In this document: positions 16,469 through 20,209 of the stretch, one piece after another | How the letters are laid out: every line of letters starts with the position of its first letter | Position numbering within the stretch: the first letter of the stretch is position 1 | Notes under the pieces: generated by a model | Database searches by the model: none | Told to the model about the DNA's origin: nothing | What the model saw: the letters and a program-made list of their open reading frames with translations, nothing else | Translations under genes and position numbers: made by a program | Assembly (NCBI GenBank): GCA_016845305.1 | Contig: JAERSW010000042.1 | Coordinates: forward strand, 17,923-81,922 | DNA length: 64,000 bases | Direction: 5' to 3' | Origin: Acidimicrobiales bacterium | GTDB taxonomy: Bacteria; Actinomycetota; Acidimicrobiia; Acidimicrobiales; MedAcidi-G1

Positions 16469-17569
16469 ATGACCTCCACGGCCGACGGGCACGCCTCCGA
16501 CGCGCCCCGGCCGGTCCGCCAGGAGCAGGAGGAGGCGTCGACCGAGGTGGCCGAGATGGCCCCCGGCCTCTACCGGTTCCAGCTCCCCATCTCGATGCCG
16601 GGCCTCGGCCACGTCAACTGCTACGCCCTCGAGGACGCCGACGGCTTCACCCTCGTCGACCCGGGCCTGCCCAGCATCGAGTCGTGGGAGGCCCTCGGCC
16701 ACCGGCTCGCCCAGGTCGGCGCCGACCACTCCCGGGTCCACACCGCGGTGGTCACCCACAGCCACCCCGACCACTTCGGCGGCGTCCACCGCCTCCGCGA
16801 CGACCACGGCACCCGGGTCCTGACCCACGAGGACTTCCGCTCGGTGTGGATGGACTCGGCGCTGGACGACGGGATGGACGGCGTGGAGCTGGACCTGGCC
16901 GACGACGAGGACCTCGAGCGGGTCCGGACGCTGATGGCCCGACCCACCCCGTGGGGGGCGACCCGCCAGGCCCCGCCGGCCACCGAGCTCCGGAAGTGGT
17001 CGGAGATGGACGTGACCGGCGGGTCGCGGTCGTGGCGGGTACCCGTTCCGTCGACCACGGTCGTCGACGGCGAGGAGCTGGTCCTCGGCGGCCGCACCTG
17101 GCTGTCGTTGCACACGCCCGGCCACACCCACGACCACCTGTGCCTCTACGACCCGGTCGACGGGATCCTGCTGTCCGGCGACCACGTCCTGCCCACCATC
17201 ACCCCGCACATCGGCGGCATCGGTCCCATGGACGACCCGCTGGCCACCTTCTTCCGGTCGCTGGAGCGCATGAAGGAGCTGCCCGGGCTCCGCCAGGTGC
17301 TGCCCGCCCACGGGCACCCGTTCGACGACGTGGCCGACCGGGTCGACCACATCGTCGACCACCACGGCGAGCGCCTGGAGACCATCCGCGAGGCCGGCGA
17401 CGAGCTGGGCAGCGCCACGGTCGAGGCCTACATGCAGCGGCTGTTCAAGGAGCGCTCGTGGGGCGACATGGCGGCCAGCGAGACCTACGCCCACCTCGAG
17501 CACCTCCGGATCATGGGCCGGGCCACGAGGGACGAAGTCGCAGGTCAGGCCCTGTATTCGACGTCCTGA
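16469..17569 (+). CDS. MBL-fold metallo-hydrolase
   Basis: 366-aa ORF with LVDPG...VVTHSHPDHFGG (H-x-H-x-D-H motif). Confidence 0.88.
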   Translation: MTSTADGHASDAPRPVRQEQEEASTEVAEMAPGLYRFQLPISMPGLGHVNCYALEDADGFTLVDPGLPSIESWEALGHRLAQVGADHSRVHTAVVTHSHPDHFGGVHRLRDDHGTRVLTHEDFRSVWMDSALDDGMDGVELDLADDEDLERVRTLMARPTPWGATRQAPPATELRKWSEMDVTGGSRSWRVPVPSTTVVDGEELVLGGRTWLSLHTPGHTHDHLCLYDPVDGILLSGDHVLPTITPHIGGIGPMDDPLATFFRSLERMKELPGLRQVLPAHGHPFDDVADRVDHIVDHHGERLETIREAGDELGSATVEAYMQRLFKERSWGDMAASETYAHLEHLRIMGRATRDEVAGQALYSTS

Positions 17570-17610
17570 TTTATTCAGTTGACCCGGGGTGACCGGATCG
17601 ACTCGGATGA
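17567..17610 (+). promoter_or_regulatory. candidate WhiB7-type promoter: AT-rich tract abutting a -35-like TTGACC
   Basis: TGATTTATTCAG (17567-17578) is the only AT-rich patch in the area. It sits directly upstream of TTGACC (17579-17584). No convincing -10 hexamer was found. Confidence 0.35.
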
Positions 17611-17952
17611 AGTCCGGTTCGACCCCCCTATCGTGGACGTCGGACCGGTCGGGACCCACCGTCCCGACCACCACCGAACGGAACCGGAAGCACACCACAT
17701 GCACGAGCACCGCGGACACCGCAACGGCCATTCGGCCGGCATGCACGCCGCCTCGTCGCGCGTGCGTCCGACCGCCCTGCATTCGGCCGGGCGGTGCCAC
17801 GCGTCGGTGGTGCATTCGTCCGTGAAGCCGAACGGTTCGTGGCTCGCGTCGACGACGTTTGCCACCGCCTATCGGACCACCGGTTTCACCAAGACCGGCC
17901 AGCGGCCCCGGGGAGCGACCAGCTGAACAGCTGAACGCAGATCCACCCCCCG

Positions 17953-17990
17953 AGGCCGCCGGAGAAATCCGGCGGCCTTCTCCGTTTTTC
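17953..17990 (+). terminator. intrinsic terminator/attenuator inside the whiB7-like leader
   Basis: AGGCCGCCGGA-GAAA-TCCGGCGGCCT is a perfect 11-bp stem, followed by TCTCCGTTTTTC. It lies about 90 nt upstream of the whiB start codon. Confidence 0.8.
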
Positions 17991-18030
17991 GGACCGGATC
18001 CACGCCTCGCCACCACCAACGACCAGAACC

Positions 18031-18069
18031 CCGACCCAGCAATCCGACCCAGCAACCCGACCCAGAAAC
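18031..18069 (+). repeat. three tandem 13-nt C/A-rich repeats between the attenuator and the whiB RBS
   Basis: CCGACCCAGCAAT / CCGACCCAGCAAC / CCGACCCAGAAAC, immediately followed by C-AGGAA-CCGAC-ATG. Confidence 0.9.
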
Positions 18070-18080
18070 CAGGAACCGAC

Positions 18081-18422
18081 ATGAGCATGCAGGTGCTGAC
18101 CTACGAACGAGAGACCTGGCGGCGACAGGCCGCCTGCGAACGCCTCGGCGTCCCCACCCGGGTCTTCTTCTCCGAGGACCTCGGGGAGATCGCCCTGGCC
18201 AAGAACACGTGCGCCGAGTGTCCGGTGATGGAGGACTGCCTCGAGGGCGCCATCCGTCGCCGCGAGCCGTGGGGCGTGTGGGGCGGCCAGCTGTTCCGCA
18301 ACGGCCACATCCTGGCCACCAAGCGCCGTCGCGGCCGCCCGTCCAAGGTGCCGCGCCCCGAGGACCAGCTGCCCGTGGTGCCCATCCCGGTGCGCATCCA
18401 GCAGGAGCTGCTGTCGGCCTGA
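18081..18422 (+). CDS. whiB7: WhiB-family transcription factor, WhiB7-like (EPW motif plus C-terminal AT-hook)
   Basis: MSMQVLTYERETWRRQAACERLG...AKNTCAECPVMEDCLEGAIRRREPWGVWGGQLF...KRRRGRPSK. It has the four-Cys Fe-S pattern, GVWGG and an RGRP AT-hook. ATG 18081 is preceded by AGGAA. Confidence 0.85.
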   Translation: MSMQVLTYERETWRRQAACERLGVPTRVFFSEDLGEIALAKNTCAECPVMEDCLEGAIRRREPWGVWGGQLFRNGHILATKRRRGRPSKVPRPEDQLPVVPIPVRIQQELLSA

Positions 18423-18440
18423 CCGGGATCACCAGGCCAC

Positions 18441-18479
18441 GGCGGCACCCACCCGTCCCCCTCCCGGGTGGGTGCCGCC
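18441..18479 (+). terminator. strong hairpin downstream of whiB (terminator without a U-tract)
   Basis: GGCGGCACCCACCCG-(9 nt)-CGGGTGGGTGCCGCC, a 15-bp perfect stem that starts 19 nt after the stop. Confidence 0.6.
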
Positions 18480-18528
18480 CGAGGACGCCGACCACGGACC
18501 GGGGTGACGCTCCGGCGAGCCCCGGTCC

Positions 18529-19095
18529 GTGCGGCTCCCACCGTGCCGGTACCGTCGCGGGATCGTGCTCCGATCCCGCGGCGGTCCCGGTGCCGCCCTC
18601 CTCACCGTCTGCCTCGCCCTCGCCGCGGCCCTACCGGTGGCCGGATGCGGTTCCGACGACGCGTCGATGGTCCACGACGACGTGGCCACCCTCCCGTTCG
18701 AACGATGGGACGGCACCTCGACCACGCTGGCCGACCTGGTGGCCACCGACGGCCGCCCGCTGGTCGTGAACCTGTGGGCCACGTGGTGCACCCCCTGCCT
18801 CGAGGAGATGCCCCACCTCCAGGCCGCCCACGAGGCCCGCGGCCACGAGGTGCGCTTCGTGGGCCTGAACGTCAGCGACTCCCCGACCCGGGCCGCGGCG
18901 CGGGCCGACGAGATGGGCATCACCTACCTTCTGGGTCGTGACCCCGACGGCGACTTCAGCGAGGCCCTCGGCGCGGTGGGGCTCCCGGTGACCGCCTTCG
19001 TGGACCGCTCGGGCGACGTCGTCCACGTCCACCACGGTCCGTTGGACGCCGAGTCCCTGTCCACCACCATCGCCGACCGCCTGACCCTGCCATGA
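18529..19095 (+). CDS. TlpA/ResA-like thiol-disulfide oxidoreductase lipoprotein
   Basis: LLTVCLALAAALPVAGCGSDD carries a lipobox. VVNLWATWCTPCLEEMP contains the thioredoxin CxxC motif. The alternative start GTG 18565 gives a more typical signal peptide. Confidence 0.88.
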   Translation: MRLPPCRYRRGIVLRSRGGPGAALLTVCLALAAALPVAGCGSDDASMVHDDVATLPFERWDGTSTTLADLVATDGRPLVVNLWATWCTPCLEEMPHLQAAHEARGHEVRFVGLNVSDSPTRAAARADEMGITYLLGRDPDGDFSEALGAVGLPVTAFVDRSGDVVHVHHGPLDAESLSTTIADRLTLP

Positions 19096-19108
19096 CCCGG
19101 GACGCCTC

Positions 19109-20209
19109 GTGATCGACGTCAGCCTGGCCCTGCCGTTCACCCTGGGCATCGTCACCGCGGTCAACCCGTGCGGCTTCGCCATGCTCCCCACCTGGCTGGG
19201 CTACTTCGTCGGACGCGACACCGCGGACGGCGAGGCCCGCCCCGAGCAGGCCCTGCGCGGCCTCTCGGTCAGCCTCACCCTGACCACCGCCTTCGTGCTG
19301 GTGTTCGGGCTCCTCGGCCTGGCCGTCAACACGGTGGTCAGCGAGGAGGCCGTGGCCTCGCGCACCCCGTGGGTGACCGTCGCCCTCGGGATCGCCTTCG
19401 TGCCGTGGGGGCTGGCCCTGCTGGCCGGCCGCCAGGTCCGCGTCCCGTTCCTCAAGCCGGGGAGGGGACCCCGGACCCGGGAGTTCTGGTCGGTCCTGGG
19501 CTTCGGGGCCTCCTACGCCGTGGTGTCGATCGGCTGCGCGGCACCGATCTTCCTGCTGCACGTGGCCGGCAGCTTCCGACGGGACGGGATCGTCGACGGC
19601 ATCGCCGTGTACCTGGCCTTCGCCGCCGGCATGGCCGCCGTGGTCACCTCGCTGACCCTGTCGCTGGCCATGGCCCGGGGTGGCCTGGCCCGGCACCTAC
19701 GACGCCTCCTGCCCCACTTCGACCGGATCGGCGCCGTGTTCCTCATGCTGGGCGGCGCCTACCTGATCGTCTACGGCGTCTACGAGATCCGGGTCCTGCG
19801 CAACCCGGGGGTCGGGTCGAACCCGATCGTCGACGCCGTCACCGACCTCCAGTCGCACCTCACCAACTGGACCATGCAGGTCGGCGGCCTGCGCCTCGGC
19901 CTGGCCCTGTGGCTGGTGGTCGGCACCCTCGTCGTCTGGGGCATCGGACCGGCCCTGGTGGGGCGGTTCCGACGGTGGGCCTGGGGTTCCGTGGCCGTGG
20001 CCTGGGTGGTGGCCGAGGGCATCGTCCACCGCGGCGACCTGGTTGTCGTCCCGGTGGGCCGCCTCGCCCTTGACTGGCCGGCCCGGATCGGCAACTGGTT
20101 CGACGACCCCTGGCGGTGGGCCACCCCGTTGGAGGCGCTGCTGACCGTCGCCGTGGTCCTGACCGCCTACGGGGCGGCGCGGGGGGCGATGGCCGGCCGG
20201 CGACGATGA
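19109..20209 (+). CDS. ccdA: cytochrome c biogenesis protein CcdA/DsbD-family membrane protein with a C-terminal TM extension
   Basis: VIDVSLALPFTLGIVTAVNPCGFAMLPTWLGYFVG... is the CcdA N-terminal motif. A second Cys sits in SYAVVSIGCAAPIF. 366 aa. Confidence 0.85.
   Translation: MIDVSLALPFTLGIVTAVNPCGFAMLPTWLGYFVGRDTADGEARPEQALRGLSVSLTLTTAFVLVFGLLGLAVNTVVSEEAVASRTPWVTVALGIAFVPWGLALLAGRQVRVPFLKPGRGPRTREFWSVLGFGASYAVVSIGCAAPIFLLHVAGSFRRDGIVDGIAVYLAFAAGMAAVVTSLTLSLAMARGGLARHLRRLLPHFDRIGAVFLMLGGAYLIVYGVYEIRVLRNPGVGSNPIVDAVTDLQSHLTNWTMQVGGLRLGLALWLVVGTLVVWGIGPALVGRFRRWAWGSVAVAWVVAEGIVHRGDLVVVPVGRLALDWPARIGNWFDDPWRWATPLEALLTVAVVLTAYGAARGAMAGRRR

Follow-up and report, generated by a model that had tools for sequence, protein, structure and literature searches.

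The contig JAERSW010000042.1 of an Acidimicrobiales bacterium (assembly GCA_016845305.1) carries, within the stretch of 64,000 nucleotides that was analysed here (the window, to which all positions refer), a gene for a WhiB-like (Wbl) transcription factor that is separated from the preceding metallo-beta-lactamase-fold (MBL-fold) gene by exactly 511 bp (17570-18080, from behind the MBL stop codon to the whiB ATG at 18081). It is very likely that this gene is a WhiB7/WblC orthologue and that the 511-bp region is a homologue of the whiB7/wblC control region, with attenuation of transcription depending on a uORF (upstream open reading frame). Such an attenuation logic, and also the length of the gap, had been put forward in a first-pass annotation made from the letters of the DNA, and the comparison with related genomes supports the proposal: the protein, the AT-rich element with its -35 hexamer, the uORF, an antiterminator and the terminator are present and conserved. 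The sequence features that this annotation listed are all found in the window.

The host genome is a metagenome-assembled genome (MAG) of 2.9 Mb in 136 contigs with 72% GC. The closest named relatives of its WhiB7 protein come from MAGs of Acidimicrobiia/Acidimicrobiales, from Candidatus Poriferisocius and from Microthrixaceae, and the lineage is therefore taken to be the class Acidimicrobiia, a different class from that of Mycobacterium and Streptomyces, which agrees with the earlier impression of a different actinobacterial lineage. For the comparison, leaders of 18 members of the genus and of 5 other genera of the same family were aligned over 620 nt upstream of the start codon, and a wider set of 110 whiB7 loci was evaluated. 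The promoter motif, the uORF, the antiterminator, a hairpin at the uORF stop codon and the terminator recur in 23 relatives of the genus and family, and about 90 Acidimicrobiia loci contain the same elements, with changes that compensate each other. The aligned blocks follow each other in the order TTTAATC-N2-3-TTGAC, a T-N-G-N-N-T hexamer, TANNNT, a GGTGG...CCRCC hairpin, ATG, CAGCGGCCCCGGGGAGCG, the stop codon, and an invariant hairpin with a T-run; the first block either follows the MBL stop codon directly or, in other genera, is set off from it by a longer spacer. The 511-bp leader folds far better than shuffled sequences (z = -4.69). Its elements and the adjoining genes are as follows.

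17567-17576, + strand: AT-rich element TGATTTATTC, the core TTATTC of which (17571-17576) fits T-W-A-W-T-C, 2 bp upstream of the -35 hexamer
17579-17584, + strand: -35 hexamer TTGACC, with TTGAC aligned and invariant in the family
17603-17608, + strand: -10-like hexamer TCGGAT, 18 nt after the -35 hexamer, non-canonical, without A at position 2
17614-17623 paired with 17639-17648, + strand: 5'-terminal hairpin (explicit pair count)
17649-17667, + strand: second leader hairpin, TCGGGAC, loop CCACC, GTCCCGA (minimum free energy and centroid structures; RNAalifold consensus of 16 genus sequences)
17699-17926, + strand: uORF of 75 codons (MHEHRGHRNGHSAG...TGQRPRGATS*), stop codon TGA at 17924-17926, cluster of His codons at 17702-17731
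17899-17913, + strand: 5' strand of the antiterminator, CC-A-GCGGCC-C-CGGGG, in the last uORF codons, encoding 'QRPRG', pairing with 17948-17962
17920-17933, + strand: small hairpin CAGCU-GAAC-AGCUG of 5 bp with the uORF stop codon inside, located within the antiterminator loop
17948-17962, + strand: 3' strand of the antiterminator, CCCCG-A-GGCCGC-C-GG, overlapping the flank and the 5' arm of the terminator
17952-17990, + strand: intrinsic terminator with a 12-bp stem (9 G-C pairs), GAAA loop and tail CTCCGTTTTTC, -26.3 kcal/mol
17991-18080, + strand: spacer, C/A-rich, poor in G and T, with the ribosome-binding site AGGAA at 18071-18075
18081-18422, + strand: whiB7 orthologue, 113 aa from ATG 18081 or 111 aa from ATG 18087
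16469-17569, + strand: preceding gene for an MBL-fold hydrolase (Pfam Lactamase_B, 8e-26), stop codon TGA at 17567-17569

The WhiB7 protein

Judged by its motifs and its similarity to solved structures, the product of 18081-18422 is assigned to the WhiB7/WblC class of Wbl factors. It matches the Pfam family Whib with 2.2e-15 and 57.4 bits (cut-off 23.6), and the four cysteines for the [4Fe-4S] cluster (C-Xn-C-X2-C-X5-C) are C18, C44, C47 and C53 in AAC...CAECPVMEDC. The REPWGVWGG motif and the C-terminal AT-hook KRRRGRPSK, both pointed out earlier, are found in the translated product. An EPW triplet beside a G[V/I]WGG turn represents the contact to region 4 of SigA (PMC3905903). The genome codes for nine Wbl paralogues; the EPW triplet and an RGRP AT-hook are confined to this one and absent from the other eight. 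In a PDB search, the best solved relative was WhiB7 of Mycobacterium tuberculosis (7KIF, E = 2.4e-18), which aligns from the N-terminus through the hook, so that KRRRGRPSK comes to lie on the hook of the M. tuberculosis protein; the other Wbl classes, WhiB, WhiB1, WhiB3 and WhiB4, matched more weakly, at 8e-8 to 2e-5.

In the orthologues, the conserved start codon matches the second ATG of the window's gene, 18087, a minor correction to the first-pass annotation. That annotation had regarded a lack of the AT-hook or of the leader in orthologues as evidence against its reading, and both turned out to be widely shared: EPWGVWGG together with the hook is present in 35 of 41 related genomes, and a G+C-rich hairpin with a T-rich tail lies upstream of the orthologue in all 30 loci from relatives that were compared in this respect; its distance to the start is 60-130 nt in 29 cases and 267 nt in one. 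Behind the hook, WhiB7 proteins of Acidimicrobiia continue with a conserved tail of 24 residues (residues 90-113, window 18348-18419: VPRPEDQLPVVPIPVRIQQELLSA, with the motif PRPED-LP-VPIP-HL), which is absent from M. tuberculosis WhiB7, where the protein ends at the hook, and from the Streptomyces orthologue in the comparison set.

A variant of the hook was seen in the loci L078, L082, L084, L085, L104 and L107, where it reads KRPCGRPPK, with Cys replacing the first Arg of the RGRP core. Four of these six records are titled Ilumatobacteraceae or Ilumatobacter, and the upstream terminator is retained in them.

The promoter

An AT-rich patch adjoining TTGACC had been described at the beginning of the gap, and it is indeed located at 17567-17584: TGATTTATTCAG (17567-17578) abuts TTGACC, and what follows the MBL stop codon, with which the AT-rich element overlaps, is TTTATTCAG and then TTGACC. 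By analogy with the known whiB7 promoters, the element is presumed to be the binding site of the WhiB7 AT-hook. In 58 of the 110 loci, TTGAC with an AT-rich flank was located upstream of whiB7 at a distance of 330-600 nt. Of the 57 distinct promoters of Acidimicrobiia whiB7 genes, all have A at -6, 98% have T at -4 and 75% have C at -3, which can be written as T-W-A-W-T-C-R-N-TTGAC, part of the A/T richness of this set being imposed by the filter used for its selection. The window's own genome contains TWAWTC-N2-TTGAC once in its 2.9 Mb, at the whiB7 promoter, which was the sole match when this motif was used to search for a regulon. With its 72% GC, the genome has only 4 sites among 2238 occurrences of TTGAC in which at least 6 of the 7 positions from -10 to -4 are A/T.

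The three other AT-rich TTGAC sites of the genome, C12:79146(+), C82:3408(-) and C134:42116(-), lie upstream of open reading frames that, as named by eye, resemble a phenylacetate-CoA ligase, an M20/ArgE peptidase and a long-chain acyl-CoA synthetase, and there is no obvious resistance gene among them. At a spacing of 17-18 nt, these sites have the -10 hexamers TAGCCT, TACGGT and CAGCAT, each carrying A in the second and T in the sixth position. Going by their sequence, they may be targets of WhiB7.

The hexamer behind TTGAC at the whiB7 promoters themselves is of another type. At 17-18 nt past TTGAC, the 57 promoters have T at position 1 in 77% and at position 6 in 60%, and A at position 2 in 9%, thus T-Y-S-S-R-T. 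Sigma-A promoters normally need A at position 2 of the -10 hexamer, and the -10 hexamers of five whiB7 loci of Actinomycetes are TAGGTT, CAGGGT, TAAGGT, TAGAGT and TATGGT. The odd hexamer might make the whiB7 promoter strongly activator-dependent. A sigma-70 consensus scan of the locus found no promoter, and readings as a sigma-28-type or an ECF-type (extracytoplasmic function) promoter were rejected, as the hexamers (TTGCCT, TTGAGT, TCCGAT and others) fit neither consensus. Support for the odd hexamer as a functional -10 comes from other Acidimicrobiia families (loci L048, L049, L095, L098-L102 and L110), in which the ATG of the uORF follows 8-10 nt behind it; this arrangement suggests that in several of these families the sensor uORF could have little or no leader of its own.

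The transcription start site (TSS) is predicted at about 17614-17616, and a conserved RNA hairpin that begins at 17614 fits such a start from the TTGAC promoter, which the first-pass annotation had also expected. In this 5'-terminal hairpin, 80.6% of the cells are paired, as compared to 22-46% when the pairing is slid; 11 cells are compensatory, and none of 500 shuffles reaches its covariation score. RNAalifold, applied to the 5' part of the leader, recovered the second hairpin only and not the 5'-terminal one. Within the loop of the 5'-terminal hairpin, about 44 nt past TTGAC, lies a TANNNT box (TATCGT, 17629-17634). The family conserves it as would be expected of a -10, with T, A and T fixed and changes at the three variable positions, and it may be a second, basal promoter.

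Terminator and antiterminator

The terminator had been placed about 90 nt before the start codon, and this holds true, with a stem of 12 bp: the arms GAGGCCGCCGGA (17952-17963) and TCCGGCGGCCTT (17968-17979) enclose GAAA and are followed by CTCCGTTTTTC up to 17990, which leaves 90 nt to the ATG. No other terminator-like site was found in 17300-18600, where 0.3 are expected from shuffles. The terminator hairpin is found in 94 of the 110 loci, including 80 named ones that are mostly from Acidimicrobiia. Its core GGCCGCCGG(A/G) varies to GGCCGTCGG, GGCCGCTGG, GCCGCTGGGAG and others, and the 3' arms match in each case. Pair counts of such stems taken from the loop outwards are circular, the hairpins having been picked for their pairing, and do not enter the evidence. 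Stems of the GGCCGCGGA type occur in one locus of Streptomyces and one of Mycobacteriales, which argues that the terminator element is homologous across the phylum. The spacer between the T-run and whiB7, 60-130 nt long and variable in length and sequence, has a mean composition of 0.36 A, 0.36 C, 0.20 G and 0.07 T, and no conserved promoter-like box was found in it in the family alignment. In the window, this spacer contains near-tandem 13-nt repeats at 18031-18069 (CCGACCCAGCAAT, CCGACCCAGCAAC, CCGACCCAGAAAC); the relatives share the composition and not the repeats.

Folding of the leader had been recommended as a way to detect antiterminator pairings, and it yields one that competes with the terminator, between 17899-17913 and 17948-17962, with a duplex energy of -29.3 kcal/mol. 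In an alignment of 24 sequences, 94% of the cells of this antiterminator are paired, as compared to 29-47% when slid, and four pairs are changed on both sides. Where the genus has a C·A mismatch, other genera form a U-A pair. In the 94 loci with a terminator hairpin, the upstream partner of the terminator arm has a median z of -2.9 against shuffles, with values below -2 in 69 of them. The partner tracks the arm variants GCCGCC, GCCGTC and GCCGCT; as examples, CCCGACGGCC is matched by GGCCGTCGGG, and CCCAGCGGC by GCCGCTGGG. A terminator arm binds the upstream segment of its own locus 2.6 kcal/mol better than do the arms of other loci (Wilcoxon P = 6e-14), a value that overstates independence, the loci being related. 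The small hairpin at the stop codon was predicted independently by RNAalifold, and 2-3 of its pairs show compensatory changes.

The uORF and the proposed mechanism

An alignment of related leaders had been suggested for finding a conserved uORF, and in this alignment the frame from ATG 17699 to TGA 17926 stands out with its start and stop codons aligned in the relatives. The stop codon lies 25 nt before the terminator stem in the window and 23-26 nt before it in the genus; at the level of the order, the uORFs have about 50-100 codons and end 27-33 nt before the stem. In the family there are 11 length classes of the uORF (56-75 codons), all of which are in frame, and this is unlikely to arise by chance without a constraint on the reading frame. 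The conserved 'QRPRG' end of the peptide coincides with the antiterminator strand.

From these elements a mechanism can be proposed that follows the published whiB7/wblC model (bioRxiv 10.1101/2023.06.02.543512; PMC11550727; for the model and the autoregulated promoter see also PMC3905903 and PMC4128351). RNA polymerase would start at the promoter formed by the AT-rich motif, TTGACC and the weak -10-like hexamer, with a TSS at about 17615, and WhiB7, bound to region 4 of sigma-A and holding the AT-rich minor groove with its AT-hook, would boost its own promoter, as can be expected from the mycobacterial system. A ribosome that reaches the uORF stop codon (17924) would cover the 3' half of 17899-17913, so that the terminator 17952-17979 could form and transcription would end at the U-tract; this masking of the antiterminator by a ribosome finishing the uORF has been modelled. 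A ribosome that stalls before this point of the uORF, because translation is inhibited or a charged tRNA is scarce, would leave 17899-17913 free to pair with 17948-17962 once this segment is made, and the antiterminator would then occupy the 5' arm of the terminator and let the polymerase read through into whiB7.

In the folding model, the nascent RNA 17615-17967 forms 11 bp of the antiterminator with pair probabilities of at least 0.97, whether or not a ribosome sits on the His cluster, and the full sequence has the terminator as its minimum-energy state, even if a ribosome at the stop codon is made to cover 17909-17939. It thus appears that a pre-formed antiterminator would delay folding of the terminator while the polymerase crosses the U-tract, and that a terminating ribosome would block the antiterminator.

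There are observations that weigh against attenuation of this kind. TCGGAT is no SigA-type -10 (TANNNT at 16-19 nt from the -35 hexamer), and the Shine-Dalgarno sequence of the uORF is weak (GGAAG, 17685-17689, 10-14 nt upstream). In pairwise comparison, the uORFs differ on average by 0.183, 0.221 and 0.225 at the first, second and third codon position, and as there is no third-position excess, protein-level selection does not prove translation of the uORF. In the Rfam comparison, no family exceeded 31 bits in 17400-18500 and none was above the gathering threshold. Finally, the local segment without a ribosome has -49.8 kcal/mol in the terminator state and -42.2 kcal/mol in the forced antiterminator state, and the full leader behaves likewise. 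As the terminator is thus favoured at equilibrium even without a ribosome, the switch would have to be kinetic, i.e. co-transcriptional, and such a kinetic switch matches the published model cited above.

A conserved functional uORF peptide was also considered and dropped, because the codon-position and dN/dS (nonsynonymous to synonymous substitution rates) tests gave no protein-level signal; the median dN/dS is 0.68, and the peptide has no match in Pfam and NCBIfam.

The possible signal for the uORF

The alternative to be taken most seriously, although it is rather unlikely, is an attenuator of the same build that is tuned mainly to the supply of amino acids, of histidine or of any charged tRNA, and not to antibiotics, with pausing at the His cluster or at a rare codon leading to read-through. 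It is in line with the composition of the uORFs, as His makes up 12.8% of the residues in the genus, compared to at most 3.7% in a crude proteome, with 3-6 His within the first 11 codons, and Ala reaches 7.9% compared to 12%. The uORFs of the genus are rich in His, Ser and Thr and not in Ala, and the Ala enrichment of the mycobacterial type is not seen; Ala-rich uORFs do occur, as noted by eye, in other Acidimicrobiia families. The His runs persist in the members of the family, with shifting positions. Poulton et al. found that uORF composition decides which starvation signals activate whiB7, and the mycobacterial uORFs have been reported to be enriched in alanine (bioRxiv 10.1101/2023.06.02.543512).

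The diversity of amino acids points in the same direction. In the uORF frame, all 22 genomes have 18-20 different amino acids and 10 of them have all 20, whereas the other two forward frames have 10-18; for a peptide of 61 residues, which is about the length of these uORFs, the probability of holding all 20 is about 0.004 under a crude proteome composition. The genomes are related, however, so that these counts are not independent, and the uORF of the window itself, with 18 of 20 amino acids (without Asp and Ile), is not unusual when taken alone (P about 0.35). Moreover, the His-rich stretch is also conserved at the nucleotide level and the codon positions vary equally, so that RNA constraints could explain it, and tuning to amino acids would be compatible with a response to antibiotics in any case. 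From the sequences, it seems that the codon content of the uORF is under selection, and the peptide not clearly so.

Other explanations of the leader

It is very improbable that the leader is an RNA switch that binds a ligand, a tRNA or a protein and works independently of uORF translation. The strong structure (z = -4.69), the largely nucleotide-level conservation and the weak ribosome-binding site of the uORF would suit such a switch, but the frame is kept through the 11 length classes, the distance from stop codon to terminator is fixed, the amino-acid diversity is specific to the uORF frame, and Rfam gave no match; for the homologous leaders of Mycobacterium and Streptomyces, dependence on the uORF has been shown by experiment (bioRxiv 10.1101/2023.06.02.543512; PMC11550727). 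Extremely improbable, too, is an independent small-protein gene in the 75-codon frame that has its own terminator, with whiB7 transcribed from a separate promoter further downstream. The frame is open, its ends are conserved and the terminator follows directly, as one would expect of such a gene, but the dN/dS of about 0.68, the lack of a third-position excess and of a match in Pfam or NCBIfam do not speak for a protein, the 'QRPRG' end coincides exactly with the antiterminator strand, and the variable spacer of 60-130 nt has no conserved -10 or -35 for whiB7. That the hairpin 17952-17990 simply terminates the MBL-fold gene, with the remaining gap as an unconstrained spacer, a possibility that had been named as one that would undermine attenuation, has been rejected on the grounds of synteny and distance and is practically negligible: an MBL-fold gene does lie upstream on the same strand in 39 loci, but the hairpin follows 383 nt past its stop codon, with the conserved promoter motif and the uORF in between, the gap as a whole is conserved and shows strong structure, and the hairpin is kept before whiB7 in about 55 loci that have no MBL gene in the upstream flank (up to 1.5 kb).

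Neighbouring genes and downstream hairpins

As in the window at 16469-20209, a gene for an MBL-fold hydrolase is widely followed in Acidimicrobiia by whiB7, a TlpA/ResA-like thioredoxin gene and a gene for a CcdA/DsbD-like membrane protein. A thioredoxin gene lies downstream of whiB7 in 74 loci, and the MBL gene upstream of it in 39.

Directly past the whiB7 stop codon, at 18433-18477, there is a long hairpin GGCGGCACCCACCCG...CGGGTGGGTGCCGCC with the C-rich loop UCCCCCUCC. The only near match to Rfam in 17400-18500 is located here, downstream of the whiB7 gene, and concerns the 6C RNA, of which the hairpin matches only the second hairpin, with 30.9 bits (gathering threshold 47). Its counterparts in the relatives have different stems and the same C-rich loop. 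A second hairpin, CACGGACCGGGGTGACGCTCCGGCGAGCCCCGGTCCGTG at 18493-18531, stands between whiB7 and the tlpA/resA-like thioredoxin gene. Its inner motif GG-UGACG-loop-CGA(G/A)-CC is conserved and its outer stem covaries; it occurs in 23 loci of the family, in 5 from other Acidimicrobiia families and only once in the window's own genome, has no match in Rfam and is not followed by a U-tract.

Comparison with known systems

The literature search found no paper that names whiB7 together with Acidimicrobiia, and a review on Wbl proteins covers Mycobacterium, Streptomyces and Corynebacterium only, with no mention of Acidimicrobiia. The locus is an instance of the known whiB7/wblC attenuator with an autoregulated promoter and adds no new mechanism. 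It indicates that the WhiB7 circuit in its complete form, with an AT-rich promoter activated by WhiB7 itself, a ribosome-sensing uORF, an antiterminator and a terminator, predates the split of Acidimicrobiia and Actinomycetes. The circuit is kept in uncultured environmental bacteria with small genomes, which are not obvious targets of antibiotics, and this fits the newer view of WhiB7 as a general sensor of translation stress and amino acids, not just a switch for drug resistance. The approximately 90 compared leaders also represent natural covariation data for the antiterminator, and they point to the properties of the uORF that would be selected, namely frame, stop position and codon content, not the peptide sequence.

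Mycobacterial whiB7 (M. tuberculosis, M. smegmatis, M. marinum) is alike in the four Cys, EPW, GVWGG and the AT-hook, and also in its leader, which is about 350-470 nt long, with a uORF that ends just before a U-tailed stem-loop and with an antiterminator as the alternative structure; the Mycobacteriales locus L117 even shares the hairpin core GGCCGC.... In contrast, the system described here belongs to the class Acidimicrobiia and is predicted from sequence, its uORF is rich in His, Ser and Thr and not enriched in Ala, it has a hairpin at the uORF stop codon, and its protein ends with the 24-residue tail. The promoter differs as well: the Actinomycetes whiB7 loci that were compared have TANNNT or CAGGGT where the -10-like hexamer has no A at position 2. 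One may combine these differences into a switch that was re-tuned in Acidimicrobiia, above all in this family, in which the A at -11 would have been lost class-wide, rendering the promoter silent without WhiB7, the uORF, selected for a cluster of His codons at its start and for almost the full set of 20 amino acids in about 60 codons, would report the charging of histidine tRNA or of tRNAs in general instead of alanine, and a newly gained tail (PRPEDQLPxVPIPxHL) would add a contact to DNA or RNA polymerase. As a whole, this combination is speculative and decidedly unlikely.

The wblC leader of Streptomyces coelicolor shares the long leader, the uORF, the Rho-independent terminator and a conserved antiterminator, and wblC is induced there by translation-targeting antibiotics and by amino-acid starvation (PMC7157823). 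The Streptomyces locus L089 has the same layout as the Acidimicrobiia leader; what differs from S. coelicolor wblC is the primary sequence, with little similarity beyond the hairpin core, and the -35 of the promoter, TTGAC here as compared to the TTGCGC or TTGCCT types in the Actinomycetes loci of the comparison.

The classical attenuators trpL, hisL and leuL of Escherichia coli work on the same principle, as the position of the ribosome on a leader reading frame picks between antiterminator and terminator, and the His cluster in the uORF recalls hisL. The uORF of the Acidimicrobiia leader is, however, much longer and compositionally broad, its sensing codons are separated by about 190 nt from the switch helix further downstream, there is no clear 1:2 'pause' hairpin, and the gene under control codes for a transcription factor and not for a biosynthetic operon.

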